From the IMG/VR virus record IMGVR_UViG_2718218133_000007: a stretch of 46,024 nt of DNA; one strand, given 5' to 3'. Numbering within the stretch: the stretch's first letter is position 1; every line of letters begins with the position of its first letter. The DNA comes from a virus. Its lineage: Duplodnaviria > Heunggongvirae > Uroviricota > Caudoviricetes. The notes beneath the pieces were generated by a model. The model made no database searches and was not told the origin of the DNA. It saw only the letters and a program-made list of their open reading frames with translations. The position numbers and the translations under genes were made by a program. Shown here piece by piece: positions 751 through 37,094 of the stretch.

Positions 751-1425
751 CTTGCACCTATCATAAAATTAAAACAAGTTGATAGCAGTCAAATAACAAC
801 CAATTAAATACACAATCATAATCAGGATGATGTGCATTTATATTTTTATACACAAAATTATAGTTTGCAAATTTTAATAAATTTCATTTAAGATTAAATT
901 ATTATATGTATATTGTTTTTTATTCTAACGTATTTCAAAGTTACATTTTTCAACGCTTACTATACTTTTTATTAACATAAACTCACTACAACGCACCTGA
1001 AACCTCTTGCTATATATATGTCAACCGTTTGAATTTAAAATAAAAAGAGTATCATTTTTACTTGCATTTCTTATCAAGTCACATTCAACAACAGTAAAAA
1101 AACATTATTAGAACCATTCAATTAACAAAAAACCAACATCCAGCTTGCTTAATTTTTCTTTATTAAACGACATTGAAAATCAATTGATAAAATACATCTA
1201 AACAACCTTTTGGGGCGCAAAAGCATAACATCAAACAAACAAATAACACACCGAAAAAACTCACAATTAATAACCTATGATATACATACTGTTTATTATG
1301 GTTGAATAAGCCACTCGATATCTGGTGCTACGGAAGTGTCCACACGGTTTAGCAGCACCCGATACTTTTTCCAGGCTTCCAGCAACGAGTTTTCTTCCTC
1401 CGTTGCATATACAGCTCACCTTTTT
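751..1425. promoter_or_regulatory. AT-rich, ORF-poor upstream region of the appY-like gene (likely promoter/leader)
   Basis: ~675 bp of very AT-rich sequence with no credible ORF, directly upstream of the appY start at 750. Confidence 0.4.
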
Positions 1426-1719
1426 TCACCCACGATTAACCAACAGCCAGACCAGCAGACACGCCACCACCGGCACAGCAAAATCCATCAGGCTTGCCAC
1501 ATCCCACGCGCGCGGATCAAAACCGCCCCACCACGGCATATTCATTCGCTTGCCATGCCCGAACATTTCGATCCAGCGATATTCTGCCTAGGTGTGTTCA
1601 CGCGCAATGAAGAACGTACAACCGGCTATCGCCCCGTAAGCCCAGTTCCCGGTAAAAAGACCAATCAGTAGCTGCGCAGCCACAGCACAAAGCGCATGAA
1701 GGAAAGGTGTTATATCCAT
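1426..1719 (-). pseudogene. small hydrophobic protein ORF interrupted by an in-frame TAG (about 43 codons, TAG, about 53 codons)
   Basis: Hand translation of the minus strand from ATG ~1719: MDITPFLHALCAVAAQLLIGLFTGNWAYGAIAGCTFFIAREHT-TAG-AEYRWIEMFGHGKRMNMPWWGGFDPRAWDVASLMDFAVPVVACLLVWLLVNRG; neither half reaches the 60-aa ORF-track cutoff. Confidence 0.3.
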
Positions 1720-1732
1720 TTTCATCCTACCC

Positions 1733-1755
1733 AATAAAACGGGGCGCTCGGCCCC
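1733..1755 (-). terminator. putative intrinsic terminator downstream of the distal tail-fibre gene
   Basis: GC stem ggggc/gcccc (~1741-1755) followed on the minus strand by a T-rich tract (gttttatt). Confidence 0.4.
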
Positions 1756-1761
1756 TTAATA

Positions 1762-2802
1762 TTATTTAGACGCAAGCGCCGCCTCAATTGCAGATAATCT
1801 TTGTCTTAATTCTGCGTTTTCTTCTTCCAGTGCTGTTATCCTGTCGTCTGACTCTCTGGCTACCTGAACAAGCAAACCCGTTACGCCTGAGTAATCAACG
1901 GTATAGTATCTTTCTCCCTCTTCTCCATCAGACCCATTGTCCCCGCTCTTGTACTTTATTGTGCTACCAACTGATTCAGGGATTGCATTAAGTGCCTCTT
2001 GCGCAATAACGCCAGCATAAGGCATACCATTAGACTTGAGACGGTAAGTATACCCATTCATTAATCTGATGCGCTCAGTGGCATTATCAATAACCTGAAT
2101 GTTTTCTTTAAGATCTCTGTCCGACACCTGGTCGAATGATGTAGCCTTGCATGACCCGTTTATCTCAAGCTGATAGGTTTTATCTGGGTTCCTTTGTGCA
2201 TAAAACAAAAAAAGCCCGCCATCATCCCTAATTTCATAAACAACTGGACGACTGGAATTTCCCCATAATAACGTCGACACACCAGAATACGCCGTACCTT
2301 GCGTGTTTAGTGTCATGGTCGACCCGTGATTAGCATATTTGATCTGCAATGAGTCTGTATTATCAAACTTAATAAGCGCGTTACTTCCCCGCACACCATA
2401 CGACATGAGACAGTTCCCCATCTTAAGGTAACCATCACTGCCTGGAAAAATTAAAGTTCCTCCGTAAAGATCACTAAAGTCCCAAAAGATACCTTTTGTC
2501 CCGTTATGTGTGACGATCCTCGTCATTGTATCTTTAGTACCATCAATATTTTTTCTGGTATATATGTCACTATAAGCGTTTTCCGTTTCACCAGTCTTAT
2601 TTGACAAATGCAGCTTACCGCTGAATATAGTTCCAGTTGTTGGCAATGTTTTTTGATCATAGATTACATTGCAATAACCATTCCATGTTGTTTTATTGTC
2701 TACATAAGATTTTGTTGCGTAGTTTCCTTGATCGGTTTTTAATTTACTAACATCCGATTTTAGCGTTTTGATGTCATCAGGAATTACTGTTTTTGTAACC
2801 AT
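1762..2802 (-). CDS. tail fibre / receptor-binding protein with C-terminal intramolecular chaperone (peptidase S74-like) domain
   Basis: 346-aa ORF; C-terminal region (…SDRDLKENIQVIDNATERIRLMNGYTYRL…, coiled-coil tail ALEEENAELRQRL) resembles the auto-cleaving chaperone domain of phage fibres/tailspikes; last gene of the tail operon; AT-rich relative to lambda-like core. Confidence 0.55.
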   Translation of the reverse strand: MVTKTVIPDDIKTLKSDVSKLKTDQGNYATKSYVDNKTTWNGYCNVIYDQKTLPTTGTIFSGKLHLSNKTGETENAYSDIYTRKNIDGTKDTMTRIVTHNGTKGIFWDFSDLYGGTLIFPGSDGYLKMGNCLMSYGVRGSNALIKFDNTDSLQIKYANHGSTMTLNTQGTAYSGVSTLLWGNSSRPVVYEIRDDGGLFLFYAQRNPDKTYQLEINGSCKATSFDQVSDRDLKENIQVIDNATERIRLMNGYTYRLKSNGMPYAGVIAQEALNAIPESVGSTIKYKSGDNGSDGEEGERYYTVDYSGVTGLLVQVARESDDRITALEEENAELRQRLSAIEAALASK

Positions 2803-2814
2803 TGTCTTACTCCA

Positions 2815-3084
2815 TTAAGCCCATGTCCTTACATGCTGATCTGTCGTAATGAAAGGCATTAAAGAAGATATGTTTTTACTGCTATCAACAATCCTCATGT
2901 TTACGAAAAAACCACCGCGATCAATGCCCGTACATCTTTCGTTTTCTGGCTCCTCGTAATCAATAATGCAGCCAATAACATCAACAAGAACCCCATTTTC
3001 TTCTTCAAGACTGAACAGGCCACTGTCATATACAATTGCGTTAAACTGTTCTCTGTTATCGAATCGTAATGTTATATCCCGCAT
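2815..3084 (-). CDS. hypothetical small protein between the two fibre genes (89 aa)
   Basis: ORF start overlaps the stf stop (coupling-type arrangement); no family recognised. Confidence 0.35.
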   Translation of the reverse strand: MRDITLRFDNREQFNAIVYDSGLFSLEEENGVLVDVIGCIIDYEEPENERCTGIDRGGFFVNMRIVDSSKNISSLMPFITTDQHVRTWA

Positions 3085-5447
3085 TATACGTATTCCTTAA
3101 GCTGCGTATCTGACAATGCTCTGTTCCAGAAACGGAGGTTTTTTATATGACCATTAAGGTGTCGTAATCCTGTCGTCGTTTGCCCCCCGATTCGAATCAC
3201 GGCTGCTTCACGAATATATTTCCATACTGTTTTGGTTTCAGTGCTTATATGCTTATTTGCAAATGAGCATGTCATGCCGTCAGCCTTAACCCTGAATCCC
3301 ATAACGAGATCTCTTACTCCGCATGACTCATATACACGCCGGTTAGCCCCGCCTATATCGCAATACGAATAACCATCCTGACTGATAGTTCCAGAAGAAC
3401 CAAACCCCATAATAAATGGGCCTCCGGACTGGTGATTTTCTGAATCAATGACACGCGGTGCAGCATTATGAGAAATAAACCAGTTTTTATGGACTTCCAC
3501 CATGAACGTAAAAGGCATGGTATACATATTTTTCATCAGCGGAAATTTACATAAATCTGATGCACGAGTCGCTGGCTCTGTTGTCGTTATGATAAAGGAA
3601 GTTGCACAAGCACCATACTCGAATTGCGGGGTGGTTACTTCTATCCAGTCACCTGTTGCAAAAGCCCCCACTGCTCTGTCGGCTGCAATTTGCAGCTGCG
3701 TACCAACCATTCCCCATTCTGGCAGACATTTCAGTGTTGCCTGAAAATATATCCATCCACTACCAGGGTCGATTTCAAAGTTTGCTGTTAATAGCTGGGC
3801 ATTACCACCCGTAATTTGTAGTTCATGAGTCTGTAATGACAAATAGGCGTCACAAAGGAAAGTGTATCCTTCCGAGTTATACCGTTCAAAACGGATACGT
3901 GCGCGAACATTGAGATCACTTCTTACCCTGAACGACGCGGTAACATACGGACCTTTACTGTACTGATCATCGCCAGTCACATCTATGCCTTTATTACCAG
4001 CAACTGTGCATATATTTCTCCCTGTTGTCGTTCCTGCTATGTCGCTTCCTACTGTGAAACGTCCATATTTAAACTCAAATTCATCTGTTGATGATGTTAC
4101 AGATATACCACCGCTTTTATTCCACGCATCAGGATTAAAACTATTTACGAACATGTTTGTTCGCTGATTCTCTATCAGCAAACCATATTTTTCAAAACGA
4201 GGAACGTTATTCCCTGCCACGGTAATATGCCCGGACTTATCAATATACGTTGCTGATGAAGCGCGGCTAAATTGGCATATGCCATTAACAGGCATTGTTA
4301 TTTCATCACTGCCGATGGTTATTGTTTTATAGCCCGGGGCATACCCTGTTATCGCTTCCAGAGAATCATTCAAGGGTAGCCAGATATCAGGAAGCGGAGG
4401 GACTGAAGCAGGATCAGCGGCATCTTCTGCAATCCGGGCTGCATTCTCTGCTCTTGTTGCGGCTGACGTTGCTTCTATCTCGCTGGCTGCTGCTTTTGTT
4501 TCACTCGTCTTTGCGTTAGTTTCACTGGTTTTTGCAGCTTTTTGGCTATTAGCTGCCGCACTTGCAGAACCAGCTGCGGCACTCTCGCTTTGGGCCGCTG
4601 CATCCTGACTGTTTTTTGCCGCAGTTTCGCTGGCTTTGGCATTCGTTTCGCTGGTCTTCGCTGCCGTCTGGCTGGACTTTGCGTTAGTTTCACTCGTCTT
4701 CGCAGCTTTCTGGCTGTTAGCCGCAGCAGTTGCTGATCCAGCTGCTGAAGTCGCAGAACCGGCTGCTGCGCTCTCGCTTTCAGCTGCTGCAGCCTGGCTA
4801 TTTTTCGCCGCAGTTTCACTGGCTTTGGCATTCGTTTCGCTGGTTTTCGCTGCCGTCTGGCTGGACTTTGCGTTGGTTTCGCTCGTCTTTGCGGCTGTCT
4901 CGCTGTTTTTCGCGTTGGTTTCTGATTTTTTGGCTGCTGTCGCGGAGTTTGCCGATGCAGTCTGCGAGGACGCTGCCGCCTGTGCGCTGTTAGCTGCATT
5001 CGTTTCTGAGGTTTTCGCCGCGTTCTTCGATGATGCCGCTGCAGTTTCGGATTTCTTTGCCACCGCTGCGCTCTGAGAGGCGGCTTCGGCGTTGCGTGCC
5101 GCTTCTTCCACCATTGCCTCAAAACGACGCAATGCCTCCGGCATGACATCATCTTCCGTCATGGCACCGAGAAAATCATTCAGCGTACCTGGTCTGGAAC
5201 CTTCATAGACGGTAATGGTTCCGGCATGTGAAGGCGGAAAACCTTCAACCAGCAGGGTGACGCTGTACTGGCCATACTCAACATCCATGCTGTAACGCCC
5301 GGCTTCATCCGGATTTTCAGAGGCCACCGTGTTCACCAGTACCGTGGTGCTGTTACGCTTTGCCTTCAGTTGAATAGTGCAGTTCTGTATTGGTTTTCCC
5401 GCACCATCTTTCAGCACACCTGAGATTTTTACTGCTGCCATATCCAC
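3084..5447 (-). CDS. stf: side tail fibre protein Stf (lambda Stf-like N-terminus, Ala/Ser/Thr/Lys-rich repeat region, LamG/concanavalin-like C-terminus)
   Basis: 787-aa ORF; N-terminus MAAVKISGVLKDGAGKPIQNCTIQLKA… matches recalled lambda Stf; internal AAKTSETNAKSSQTAAK-type repeats; C-terminal …GHIKNLRFWNRALSDTQLKEYV typical of LamG-like domains; follows lom. Confidence 0.85.
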   Translation of the reverse strand: MDMAAVKISGVLKDGAGKPIQNCTIQLKAKRNSTTVLVNTVASENPDEAGRYSMDVEYGQYSVTLLVEGFPPSHAGTITVYEGSRPGTLNDFLGAMTEDDVMPEALRRFEAMVEEAARNAEAASQSAAVAKKSETAAASSKNAAKTSETNAANSAQAAASSQTASANSATAAKKSETNAKNSETAAKTSETNAKSSQTAAKTSETNAKASETAAKNSQAAAAESESAAAGSATSAAGSATAAANSQKAAKTSETNAKSSQTAAKTSETNAKASETAAKNSQDAAAQSESAAAGSASAAANSQKAAKTSETNAKTSETKAAASEIEATSAATRAENAARIAEDAADPASVPPLPDIWLPLNDSLEAITGYAPGYKTITIGSDEITMPVNGICQFSRASSATYIDKSGHITVAGNNVPRFEKYGLLIENQRTNMFVNSFNPDAWNKSGGISVTSSTDEFEFKYGRFTVGSDIAGTTTGRNICTVAGNKGIDVTGDDQYSKGPYVTASFRVRSDLNVRARIRFERYNSEGYTFLCDAYLSLQTHELQITGGNAQLLTANFEIDPGSGWIYFQATLKCLPEWGMVGTQLQIAADRAVGAFATGDWIEVTTPQFEYGACATSFIITTTEPATRASDLCKFPLMKNMYTMPFTFMVEVHKNWFISHNAAPRVIDSENHQSGGPFIMGFGSSGTISQDGYSYCDIGGANRRVYESCGVRDLVMGFRVKADGMTCSFANKHISTETKTVWKYIREAAVIRIGGQTTTGLRHLNGHIKNLRFWNRALSDTQLKEYV
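4440..5080. repeat. degenerate tandem DNA repeats (period about 189 bp, 63 codons) inside stf
   Basis: Near-identical blocks beginning ~4621 and ~4810 (…cagtttcgctggctttggcattcgtttcgctgg…), with further degenerate copies ~4440-4560; creates spurious alternative-frame ORFs. Confidence 0.6.
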
Positions 5448-27724: not shown

Positions 27725-27742
27725 AGCCTCACCTCCGCAAAT

Positions 27743-27751
27743 AACGGATGG
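27743..27751. repeat. 9-bp target-site duplication (left copy, aacggatgg) of the IS1 insertion
   Basis: Identical 9-mer found immediately flanking both IS1 ends; IS1 is known to make 8-9-bp duplications. Confidence 0.65.
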
Positions 27752-27806
27752 GGTAATGCTGCCAACTTACTGATTTAGTGTATGATGGTGATTTTAAGGT
27801 GCTTGC

Positions 27807-28082
27807 GTGGCTTCCATTTCCATCAGATGTCCTTCCTGCTCCGCTACTGAAGGCGTGGTGCGTAACGGCAAAAGCACTGCCGGACATCAGCGCTATCTCT
27901 GCTCTCATTGCCGTAAAACATGGCAACTGCAGTTCACTTACACCGCTTCTCAACCCGGTACGCACCAGAAAATCATTGATATGGCCATGAATGGCGTTGG
28001 ATGCCGGGCAACTGCCCGCATTATGGGCGTTGGTCTCAACACGATTTTACGTCACTTAAAAAACTCAGGCCGCAGTCGGTAA
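27807..28082 (+). CDS. insA: IS1 InsA
   Basis: 91-aa [43 protein letters not shown]… matches recalled IS1 InsA (zinc finger + HTH). Confidence 0.9.
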
Positions 28083-28504
28083 CCTCGCGCATACAGCCGG
28101 GCAGTGACGTCATCGTCTGCGCGGAAATGGGCGAACAGTGGGGCTATGTCGGGGCTAAATCGCGCCAGCGCTGGCTGTTTTACGCGTATGACAGGCTCCG
28201 GAAGACGGTTGTTGCGCACGTATTCGGTGAACGCACGATGGCGACGCTGGGGCGTCTTATGAGCCTGCTGTCACCCTTTGACGTGGTGATATGGATGACG
28301 GATGGCTGGCCGCTGTATGAATCCCGCCTGAAGGGAAAGCTGCACGTAATCAGCAAGCGATATACGCAGCGAATTGAGCGGCATAACCTGAATCTGAGGC
28401 AGCACCTGGCACGGCTGGGACGGAAGTCGCTGTCGTTCTCAAAATCGGTGGAGCTGCATGACAAAGTCATCGGGCATTATCTGAACATAAAACACTATCA
28501 ATAA
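28001..28504 (+). CDS. insB: IS1 InsB (expressed as InsAB' transposase by -1 frameshift)
   Basis: 167-aa ORF matching recalled InsB; overlaps insA in -1 frame across the A6C motif (~28058-28064). Confidence 0.9.
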
Positions 28505-28519
28505 GTTGGAGTCATTACC

Positions 28520-28528
28520 AACGGATGG
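28520..28528. repeat. 9-bp target-site duplication (right copy, aacggatgg) of the IS1 insertion
   Basis: See left copy. Confidence 0.65.
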
Positions 28529-34911: not shown

Positions 34912-36438
34912 TCAAAAATAAACCTCACCATCAACCATATATTTGAGAGTACTTATCGCCTGCTGGGCGGATATTGTTTTCATTAAAGGATAGTGTTTAA
35001 AAACAATGCCATTCATAAAATAGATATCACAGGTTTTATTATCTGTATTGATTATGATTTTTTCGAATGTTTTATAGGCAAGTGTACGACATAGCTCTCG
35101 CCCATTTTTACTGGTTAAGTCAATAGCATGAAAATCACCAAGTGAACTCACCGCTTTACTCTTCAAAGTTTTTAATGATACAGAAGCCCTTCGTAATTCC
35201 TTATCTAATACTCTGATTTTTTCTGCTATAGCGGTAACTTCAGGCGCAACAGATAATGCAGCAATTAAATTATTAATTTTCATCTGGAGCTCAATAATTT
35301 TCAACTCTAAAGTTTCATTAGCATCTTTCTTGTTTTCAACTGGTTGGATTTTACTACAATTAAAAAGCAACTCATTAATGATATTATAATCAACCAAATC
35401 TCTCTTTATTGATGGCCTGTCACATCGATGCAGTCTTCTCATCGGACAAACATAATAGCCATGCAAACTTCCAGATACCGCATGAACAATCATGGTATTA
35501 CCACAAGCCTCGCACTTCATAACTGTTCGAAGTAGATTTATCAACATAGGATTTTTGCTACTATTGCTAATACCAAAAGGTGCCAACCGAATTTCCTGTA
35601 CAGCGTAAAACAAATCATCTGATATGACTCTGGGATAATAGCCAGCGATTTCACTTATTCCTTTACCTCTTGCACGATATGAAGGTACGCATATACCTAT
35701 CAGAGCTTTATTCGCTAATAATTTTTCAATTACAGAAGGTCCCCATGCACTTTCTTTTCCTGAGAAATTCTTTACAGCATGATCATTTAAATACTTGGCT
35801 ATTGCATTCAATGAGCGCCTTTCCATCCTGAGTTTAAAAATTAGCTCAATAGTTTTCACCCTGTCGGGGTCTGGAACAAAAGCCGTTCTTTTGTCATCTA
35901 AGGAGAGCCATCTCGGACAAGACGCCGTCATAATCGTACCTGATTCCAGTGCATCCTGCCGTTTTTTCTTCCATGATAATTTAACCCGACTTGACTTTAT
36001 CTCGCTTTCTTCATTTGCCCTTTGTGCTATAAGTATGGCTTTTATTAATGAATATGGCTCATTCAAAGAGTCAATATTATAGACTGTATTGTCGCAAAGA
36101 GTTATAACATCAATACCGTGATTCAAAATCAATTTCAGACGTTCAATCGCTTCACCGACTTTTTCTCTTGAAAGTCTGTCCAGACTTTCAACTAACAATG
36201 TAGTTCCTGGCAATATATAACCATGCTCTATAGCATCTAAAAATTCCGAAAAAGCTCCTGATTGTGCATGCTTTCCTTTGAATGCACTTAATCCTAAATC
36301 TTCATATGTTATGGTATCAAGATAATAATCACTATTTACCTTTAACCATTCAGCAATAAGTCTTCTCTGTCGGTTTAATGAGTCGCCAGACATCTGACCT
36401 GGTGATGAAAATCGCATATATGCTATGGCTTTTTTCAT
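34912..36438 (-). CDS. ybcK: large serine recombinase (resolvase/invertase-type N-terminal domain, recombinase domain, zinc ribbon, coiled coil), YbcK-like
   Basis: 508-aa ORF; N-terminal …AIAYMRFSSPGQ… with candidate catalytic Ser; Cys cluster CEACG…C…C; AT-rich; adjacent to emrE as in DLP12. Confidence 0.75.
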   Translation of the reverse strand: MKKAIAYMRFSSPGQMSGDSLNRQRRLIAEWLKVNSDYYLDTITYEDLGLSAFKGKHAQSGAFSEFLDAIEHGYILPGTTLLVESLDRLSREKVGEAIERLKLILNHGIDVITLCDNTVYNIDSLNEPYSLIKAILIAQRANEESEIKSSRVKLSWKKKRQDALESGTIMTASCPRWLSLDDKRTAFVPDPDRVKTIELIFKLRMERRSLNAIAKYLNDHAVKNFSGKESAWGPSVIEKLLANKALIGICVPSYRARGKGISEIAGYYPRVISDDLFYAVQEIRLAPFGISNSSKNPMLINLLRTVMKCEACGNTMIVHAVSGSLHGYYVCPMRRLHRCDRPSIKRDLVDYNIINELLFNCSKIQPVENKKDANETLELKIIELQMKINNLIAALSVAPEVTAIAEKIRVLDKELRRASVSLKTLKSKAVSSLGDFHAIDLTSKNGRELCRTLAYKTFEKIIINTDNKTCDIYFMNGIVFKHYPLMKTISAQQAISTLKYMVDGEVYF

Positions 36439-36694: not shown

Positions 36695-37027
36695 TTAATG
36701 TGGTGTGCTTCGTGACAATAAATTAATAACCAACACACCGGCACAAATCAACATCATGCCTATAATGGCTGGCAGGTCCAGCCGTTGGCCGAAAAGTCCC
36801 CATGACAGTAAGCTAATCAGGACAATACCGACTCCTGACCAGATAGCATAAGCAATCCCTGTAGGAATATAAGCCAGCGTCTGAGCTAATAACCAGAATG
36901 ATGCACAATAACAAATAATTGTACCAACAGATGGCCATAACCGTGTAAAACCTTCTGAAAACTTCATTAAGGTTGTACCAATGACCTCTGCAAGTATTGC
37001 ACCACCAAGATAAATATAAGGGTTCAT
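36695..37027 (-). CDS. emrE: small multidrug resistance efflux transporter EmrE
   Basis: 110 aa from MNPYIYLGGAILAEVIGTTLMKFSEGF… matches recalled EmrE; four TM segments; ORF track extends to 37081. Confidence 0.9.
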   Translation of the reverse strand: MNPYIYLGGAILAEVIGTTLMKFSEGFTRLWPSVGTIICYCASFWLLAQTLAYIPTGIAYAIWSGVGIVLISLLSWGLFGQRLDLPAIIGMMLICAGVLVINLLSRSTPH

Positions 37028-37094
37028 AGAATATTCTTTCCTGTTCAAACTGGAGAGAATTGTACTACAGTTTGAACTCAACTCACCTGTTTCA

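Follow-up and report, generated by a model that had tools for sequence, protein, structure and literature searches.

An in-frame amber codon in a small membrane-protein gene of a DLP12-site lambdoid prophage: very probably a recent, clonally inherited nonsense mutation

The inspection of a 46,024 nt stretch of prophage DNA (referred to below as the window) showed a small reading frame of the minus strand to be interrupted once, in frame, by a TAG codon. A preliminary description, made from the sequence alone, had left two readings of this frame side by side: a recent pseudogene, or a gene whose expression depends on amber suppression. The question raised by the locus is which of the two applies. 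The results set out below indicate that the frame is very probably a recent nonsense pseudogene, inherited clonally, which derives from a single C-to-T change at an invariant glutamine codon (Gln-44) and involves no suppression. The feature as such is already known, RefSeq marking the gene as a pseudogene with an internal stop. The features of the window that are relevant to the question are collected in Table 1.

Table 1. Location of the disrupted small gene, its parts and its neighbours in the window.
Feature	Position	Strand	Remarks
Caudo_TAP tail-fibre assembly relic, C-terminal 36 residues, without N-terminus	1296..1406	-	PF02413 positions 95-130 of 131, E = 3.3e-15
Disrupted small-gene ORF, 97 codons	1426..1719	-	phrog_1443 family, three-helix membrane protein; one in-frame TAG; pseudogene
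Residual 46-codon ORF, Met52 to natural stop	1426..1566	-	Taken by gene callers as a separate 'gene' (phrog_34165)
Former Dcm site, ancestral CCAGG now CTAGG	1587..1591	-	Mutated C is the methylated inner C; read from alignments
Premature amber codon TAG, codon 44	1590..1588	-	Sole internal stop of the frame
Expected translated part, residues 1-43	1591..1719	-	Helix 1 and first two-thirds of helix 2
G+C-rich terminator-like hairpin, then GTTTTATT	1741..1755	-	Between tail-fibre stop and small gene
Tail fibre, 346 aa, with C-terminal intramolecular chaperone domain	1762..2802	-	phrog_4563, E = 4.9e-200; Peptidase_S74, E = 2.3e-12
Side tail-fibre gene, 787 codons, uninterrupted	3084-5447	-	Sequence identical in FDAARGOS_497
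IS1, 768 bp	27751-28518		InsA 27807-28082, InsB 28001-28504 (+); absent from the FDAARGOS_497 prophage
ybcK serine recombinase	34912-36438		Window prophage
emrE	36695-37081		Window prophage

Computational translation of window positions 1426-1734 on the minus strand, repeated by script, gave MDITPFLHALCAVAAQLLIGLFTGNWAYGAIAGCTFFIAREHT, a stop, AEYRWIEMFGHGKRMNMPWWGGFDPRAWDVASLMDFAVPVVACLLVWLLVNRG and a second stop. The frame starts with an ATG at 1719, ends with a TGA at 1428..1426 and comprises 97 codons, and the base that follows the TAG at codon 44 is a G. The translation confirmed the coordinates, the length of about 97 codons and the in-frame amber codon that had been read by hand, and an earlier worry about misreading of single bases was not borne out. 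The alignment of the window ORF with intact homologues spanned 294 columns and was free of gaps, so there was no indel; a frameshift in place of the stop was rejected on these grounds. The only disruptive difference in the alignment was a C-to-T change at the first base of codon 44, which turns CAG into TAG (window position 1590; C to T on the coding strand, G to A on the plus strand). CAG was one of the sense codons that had been suggested beforehand as the one replaced. The ORF lies next to the tail-fibre module, as the preliminary description had it; its distance downstream of the gene for the 346-aa tail fibre is 42 nt.

The length of the ORF is by itself weak evidence for a gene: 9.5% of shuffles of its sequence contain at most one in-frame stop. 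Its status as a real gene follows from homology. The BL21 orthologue, which shares 95.9% DNA identity with the window ORF, matched positions 1-96 of the 97 of phrog_1443 (E = 2.4e-58), and the family falls into 577 clusters at 90% identity and 436 at 50%. The 90%-identity clusters span Escherichia, Shigella, Salmonella, Citrobacter, Enterobacter, Leclercia, Aeromonas and Comamonas, and all are annotated as 'hypothetical'. Conserved homologues of the joined frame, in the form of intact 97-aa copies, therefore do exist. An antisense ORF of 111 aa on the plus strand (1336-1671) was rejected as a real gene, since homology and annotation all lie on the minus strand.

Codon 44 is CAG in the homologues of the BL21 Rac prophage, HYM1, HannyBb, PhiR49_2, AF26 and Comamonas, and CAA, which also encodes Gln, in one distant JGI homologue. 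At the protein level Gln44 was invariant in all 42 close relatives, where it lies inside AREHTQAEYRWI, and at least 90% conserved in 34 distant relatives (29-57% identity), where it lies within RE(H)xQAE. The core motif of the family that holds it reads AREHTQAEYRW. In the 34 distant relatives only H8, R40, E41 and W72 were strictly invariant, and His8, Arg40, Glu41, Gln44 and Glu46 form a conserved polar cluster. The family core can be written as H8, R40-E41, Q44-A45-E46, W72 and P83, all of which the window ORF encodes except for Q44, replaced by the TAG. Judged from its sequence, the window gene is a member of phrog_1443 by descent, but a broken one, the residues after position 43 lying beyond the reach of translation.

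Two membrane-like segments had been predicted for the product. Kyte-Doolittle hydropathy did show two strong peaks, at about residues 7-24 and 76-93, in agreement with that prediction, along with a weaker one at residues 25-39; three helices nonetheless describe the protein better, since an AlphaFold2 model built with 42 homologues (mean pLDDT 92.5) placed helices at residues 4-23, 26-52 and 74-96. Residue 44 falls within the second of these. Under standard bacterial termination, translation would stop after 43 residues, inside helix 2 and ahead of the region that is conserved best, and for this reason the allele is interpreted as a loss-of-function pseudogene. The part lost past the TAG is the conserved half that contains QAEYRW, W72 and P83. 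On the model, the stop is expected to remove an essential-looking residue and, with it, the last part of helix 2, the whole of helix 3 and the conserved loop.

Intact copies of the gene are widespread. Of 5,426 complete E. coli genomes, 1,914 contain matches to a 361-nt region, at 3,939 places in all; 53 phage records match it too. Intact copies are annotated as 97-aa hypothetical proteins in the Rac prophage of BL21 (WP_000355360.1) and in HYM1 (WP_001405873.1), and as a 'putative membrane protein' in phage 21; that of phage HannyBb (XNS40204.1) is also intact. These four genes are orthologous to the window pseudogene, encode 97 aa, share 93-99% DNA identity and occupy the same position after tail-fibre genes; they differ from it in being uninterrupted, codon 44 being CAG in place of TAG. 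The HannyBb gene lies 2 nt from the window ORF, and the conceptual protein of the window is identical to the HannyBb protein except for the stop. Only the codon-44 base and one synonymous site thus separate the window ORF from the intact allele of a viable phage, which marks the allele as young.

The frequency of the stop was determined with a 33-mer query centred on the TAG and designed so that any megablast match must include the T. It matched 37 of the 5,426 complete E. coli genomes, at one place each, while the CAG version of the same 33-mer matched 1,812 places in 1,169 E. coli genomes. The TAG on the other common background (CAT ACC) gave no match in the E. coli genomes, and a search of 50,697 phage records with the TAG 33-mer was likewise empty. 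Of the 37 TAG loci, ten were inspected. In nine of them the ORF, checked base by base, was 100% identical to that of the window, the gene order was the same (side tail fibre, 89-aa protein, 346-aa fibre, ORF, tail-fibre-assembly relic, appY, ompT), and the PGAP/RefSeq label read 'hypothetical protein, internal stop'. One such locus is EGY17_RS16205, a RefSeq/PGAP pseudogene of strain FDAARGOS_497; it is 100% identical over the 294-nt ORF, has the neighbours found in the window (tail fibre WP_022645319.1, tfa relic, appY and ompT) and shows no difference from the window at the locus itself.

The carriers were sampled from humans, a pig, a dog, a dolphin and wastewater, on several continents. 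Strains ECONIH1 and MS14385 have been typed as ST648 (PMC8454413), Ecol_881 serves as an ST648 reference (PMC9174282), and one further carrier bears the strain name ST648. The TAG allele is thus inherited clonally and marks the lambdoid prophage that the ST648 lineage carries beside appY, at the DLP12 site. The reading as a recent pseudogene agrees with these observations: the TAG replaces an invariant CAG, it is rare and essentially clonal (37 genomes versus 1,812 CAG places), and RefSeq/PGAP record an internal stop.

The tenth inspected locus was different. Escherichia coli A41, a marsupial isolate, carries a TAG copy in another prophage, beside a manganese catalase gene (NZ_CP028735.1, 2376217-2376441). 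This copy is 5'-truncated and has ten further differences, among them G29R and D68E at invariant positions, and it is an older pseudogene in a more advanced state of decay. Its TAG would derive either from an independent event at the Dcm site or from recombination. The ST648-type clonal copies have no further changes, signs of relaxed selection being visible only in the A41 copy.

The persistence of the allele could also mean that the stop was selected in ST648, either as an adaptive knock-out of a costly or phage-sensitising protein or as a split of the gene into two peptides, of residues 1-43 and 52-97, the second made by re-initiation at Met52. The allele is unchanged in a clone that has spread globally through several hosts and continents, and A41 provides a second TAG-bearing copy in another prophage context. 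Further, the ATG of Met52 stands only 24 nt past the TAG, and the 46-aa ORF that starts there is common enough in databases to make up phrog_34165. However, clonal hitch-hiking explains the persistence without selection, a reading of the sequence upstream of Met52 revealed no convincing Shine-Dalgarno sequence, and the A41 copy bears the further damaging changes mentioned above. The prophage also shows other marks of decay: the zapA-like gene and ylcJ are frameshifted in FDAARGOS_497, and in the window an IS1 has inserted upstream of the lysis genes. Selection for the stop is considered improbable. The same low probability is given to the broader proposal that the stop was selected in ST648, its inactivating or splitting effect altering the phage susceptibility or the envelope of the lysogen, or that a low level of UAG readthrough is functional. 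Were this proposal true, the loss of an inner-membrane protein linked to receptor-binding genes would change the phage susceptibility or envelope properties of lysogens.

The proposal that a full-length product is made from a functional gene, through amber suppression or programmed readthrough of the TAG, fared worse. The frame downstream of the TAG is open and unchanged in all the ST648-type copies sampled, and low-level natural readthrough of UAG-G is compatible with the sequence. An intact downstream frame is nevertheless no surprise if the mutation is young, as the 2 nt that separate the ORF from the intact phage allele indicate. No tRNA gene was found in the 46-kb window, and a scan of the whole window at the Rfam gathering thresholds gave no match. 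In the near-identical genome of FDAARGOS_497, the glnX-glnV-metU-glnW-glnU cluster has wild-type anticodons (CTG in glnX and glnV, TTG in glnW and glnU); neither supE nor supB was found among its four Gln tRNAs. The search for a suppressor, which covered the tRNAs of the window and these four Gln tRNAs, thus found none. As a positive control, a supE44 33-mer was searched for and found in 157 genomes; among the 60 matches listed of the 157, all look like K-12 laboratory strains, as judged from strain names and chromosomes of 4.5-4.8 Mb. Efficient amber suppressors are rare in natural isolates, since several hundred E. coli genes end in TAG. The TAG at codon 44 was not found to be conserved among homologues (CAG at 1,812 places versus TAG at 37 with the same 33-mer), and no conserved recoding signal is seen, homologues reading CAG at at least 1,812 places. 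With no tRNA in the window, wild-type Gln anticodons in a near-identical genome and a TAG that is not conserved, the claim that expression depends on amber suppression finds no support. A suppression-dependent gene is, on this sequence evidence, very unlikely, and a functional full-length product made by suppression or programmed readthrough is rated still lower than selection for the stop. The idea that the TAG reflects a fault of sequencing or assembly, or that it was misread, which the earlier warning about base-level error would favour, is close to untenable: the base is shared by 37 complete genomes that were assembled independently, nine of them were checked base by base, and the translation agrees.

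The preferred reading, a single recent nonsense mutation, leaves the origin of the base change to be accounted for. In CCAGG the inner C is the target of Dcm methylation, and the 5-methylcytosine so formed becomes T on deamination. Codon 44 and its flanks are ACC CAG GCA in the intact alleles and ACC TAG G in the window; the change at codon 44 is a C-to-T at the inner C of CC(A/T)GG, the change that deamination at a Dcm site leaves. Given this position within a Dcm site, deamination is the most likely origin. Spontaneous deamination of 5-methylcytosine to thymine at window position 1590 (coding strand), escaping very-short-patch repair as at the lacI amber hotspots, would have converted the Gln-44 codon of the 97-codon phrog_1443 prophage gene from CAG to TAG. 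The dcm gene was found in 5,367 of the 5,426 complete E. coli genomes (98.9%), and the ST648-type lineage almost certainly has it. At the lacI amber hotspots, GC-to-AT transitions occur at the second C of CCAGG (Coulondre, Miller, Farabaugh and Gilbert 1978; reviewed in PMC12606429). The window allele shows the same GC-to-AT change at the second C of CCAGG, and in both cases CAG becomes TAG, although the lacI hotspots were seen in selected laboratory mutants while the window allele is a natural one carried by a prophage. The context fits that of a Dcm hotspot perfectly; the evidence that this change is a putative hotspot is thin, with at most two backgrounds carrying the TAG (ST648-type and A41) and none being the CAT background.

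The amber codon, a nonsense mutation of the textbook kind that has hit an accessory gene of a prophage, is itself of little consequence. Its uses are limited, at most, to marking the lineage of the ST648-type DLP12-site prophage and to illustrating a natural CAG-to-TAG change at a Dcm site. A more useful by-product is the family itself, a conserved and unannotated family of small membrane proteins encoded nearly always directly after receptor-binding genes; its intact members are reasonable candidates for experimental study, and natural knock-out strains exist.

phrog_1443 is an uncharacterised family whose members have about 97 residues and three predicted helices. A Pfam search of the family returned nothing significant, with only a sub-threshold match to PhoR (E = 0.059), and no family or model was matched in searches of NCBIfam and PADLOC. 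Structure searches returned generic helical-bundle matches only. A profile search of 1.8 billion representatives detected stand-alone proteins of 58-146 aa exclusively, with no informative domain fusions. A literature search by accessions and PHROG identifier found no paper on the family. With respect to exclusion genes that adjoin tail fibres, the paper on the Tai tail-assembly interference system (PMC11364771) shows no link to phrog_1443 and makes no mention of transmembrane proteins. A second profile, phrog_34165, has 46 positions and matches residues 52-97 (E = 7.4e-35), that is, it corresponds to residues 52-97 of phrog_1443. Its source sequences are probably ORFs left over in broken alleles, and it would then be a database artefact.

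Eight phrog_1443 loci outside E. coli were examined for their gene neighbourhoods. In six of the eight, as in every E. coli prophage or phage locus examined, the gene adjoins fibre, spike or tail-tip genes. It begins 1 nt past a 939-aa S74-type fibre gene in a Leclercia P2-like prophage, overlaps the gene for an 875-aa fibre by 4 nt in an Aeromonas salmonicida P2-like prophage, follows a pectate-lyase spike located downstream of J in a Citrobacter prophage, follows a Tail_spike_N/GDSL-esterase spike in two metagenomic contigs, and lies one gene past a 2,520-aa J-like protein in a Comamonas prophage. The remaining two loci, in the chromosome of Aeromonas rivipollensis and in one JGI contig, had no phage genes nearby. 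The receptor-binding neighbours belong to both lambdoid and P2-like tail modules. The family is therefore tightly linked to receptor-binding genes, and not specific to one type of them.

Because the gene lies nearly always directly 3' of receptor-binding genes, our best guess, offered tentatively and with less than even confidence, is that the intact protein may be an inner-membrane factor of lysogenic conversion or superinfection exclusion that acts on a conserved step. The intact family could prove to be an exclusion or fibre-related factor, encoded by phages, of a kind not described before. Superinfection exclusion genes beside receptor-binding genes are exemplified by cor (phi80, N15 and HK022) and llp (T5), which encode outer-membrane lipoproteins, each matched to one receptor. 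Like Cor and Llp, the phrog_1443 proteins are small, belong to the cell envelope and have genes that directly adjoin the host-range genes of temperate or siphoviral phages. They differ in being predicted integral membrane proteins with three helices, conserved downstream of unrelated types of fibres and spikes, and homology of phrog_1443 to Cor or Llp was not detected. A lipoprotein of the Cor/Llp type was rejected as an identity for want of a lipobox: residues 8-11 read HALC, the -1 position is Leu, and Cys11 is replaced by A, I, S or G in relatives.

The slot immediately 3' of the fibre gene, in which phrog_1443 genes lie, is also the one of the tail-fibre assembly chaperones (Caudo_TAP proteins, lambda Tfa and P2 G). 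Identity with a Tfa chaperone was rejected, as there is no sequence similarity and the protein is hydrophobic and, as modelled, membrane-embedded. The E. coli phrog_1443 gene precedes a truncated Caudo_TAP relic and does not replace the Caudo_TAP function. In the window the relic starts twenty bases downstream of the small gene, and PGAP labels it 'tail fiber assembly protein, missing N-terminus'. The same Caudo_TAP relic follows the small gene in most E. coli copies. This arrangement suggests that the 5' part of an older fibre/tfa cassette gave way to the small gene, either alone or together with the S74-type fibre. As regards the features of a moron cassette, a terminator-like hairpin is present upstream of the small gene (1755-1741) and not downstream, and a consensus scan from the hairpin to the ATG saw no sigma-70-like promoter.

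The window as a whole (1-46024) is a complete lambdoid prophage at the DLP12 site, argU (tRNA-Arg)/intD to appY. It has a full set of replication, lysis, head and tail genes, plus genes for a lipocalin, a YbgA-like protein and an AraC-type regulator. Besides emrE and ybcK it also carries ybcN, rusA, essD and rrrD, and it resembles an intact counterpart of the DLP12 remnant of K-12. It is 99.98-100% identical to positions 2,908,942-2,954,188 of FDAARGOS_497, an IS1 insertion aside, the differences amounting to five SNPs (12116, 16961, 17460, 27185 and 27752) plus the IS1. The IS1 is flanked by 9-bp direct repeats, AACGGATGG (27742-27750 and about 28519-28528), and lies some 27 bp upstream of the start of the essD holin gene, where it is probably polar on the late operon (lysis, head and tail). 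General erosion of the prophage appears, from such changes, to be under way. The side tail-fibre gene is annotated unevenly: in FDAARGOS_497 PGAP splits it in two, one CDS being N-terminal and marked 'partial' and the other named 'phage head spike fiber domain', and its annotated lengths differ among sister genomes. The split looks like an annotation artefact in an Ala/Ser-rich repeat region and not a real break.
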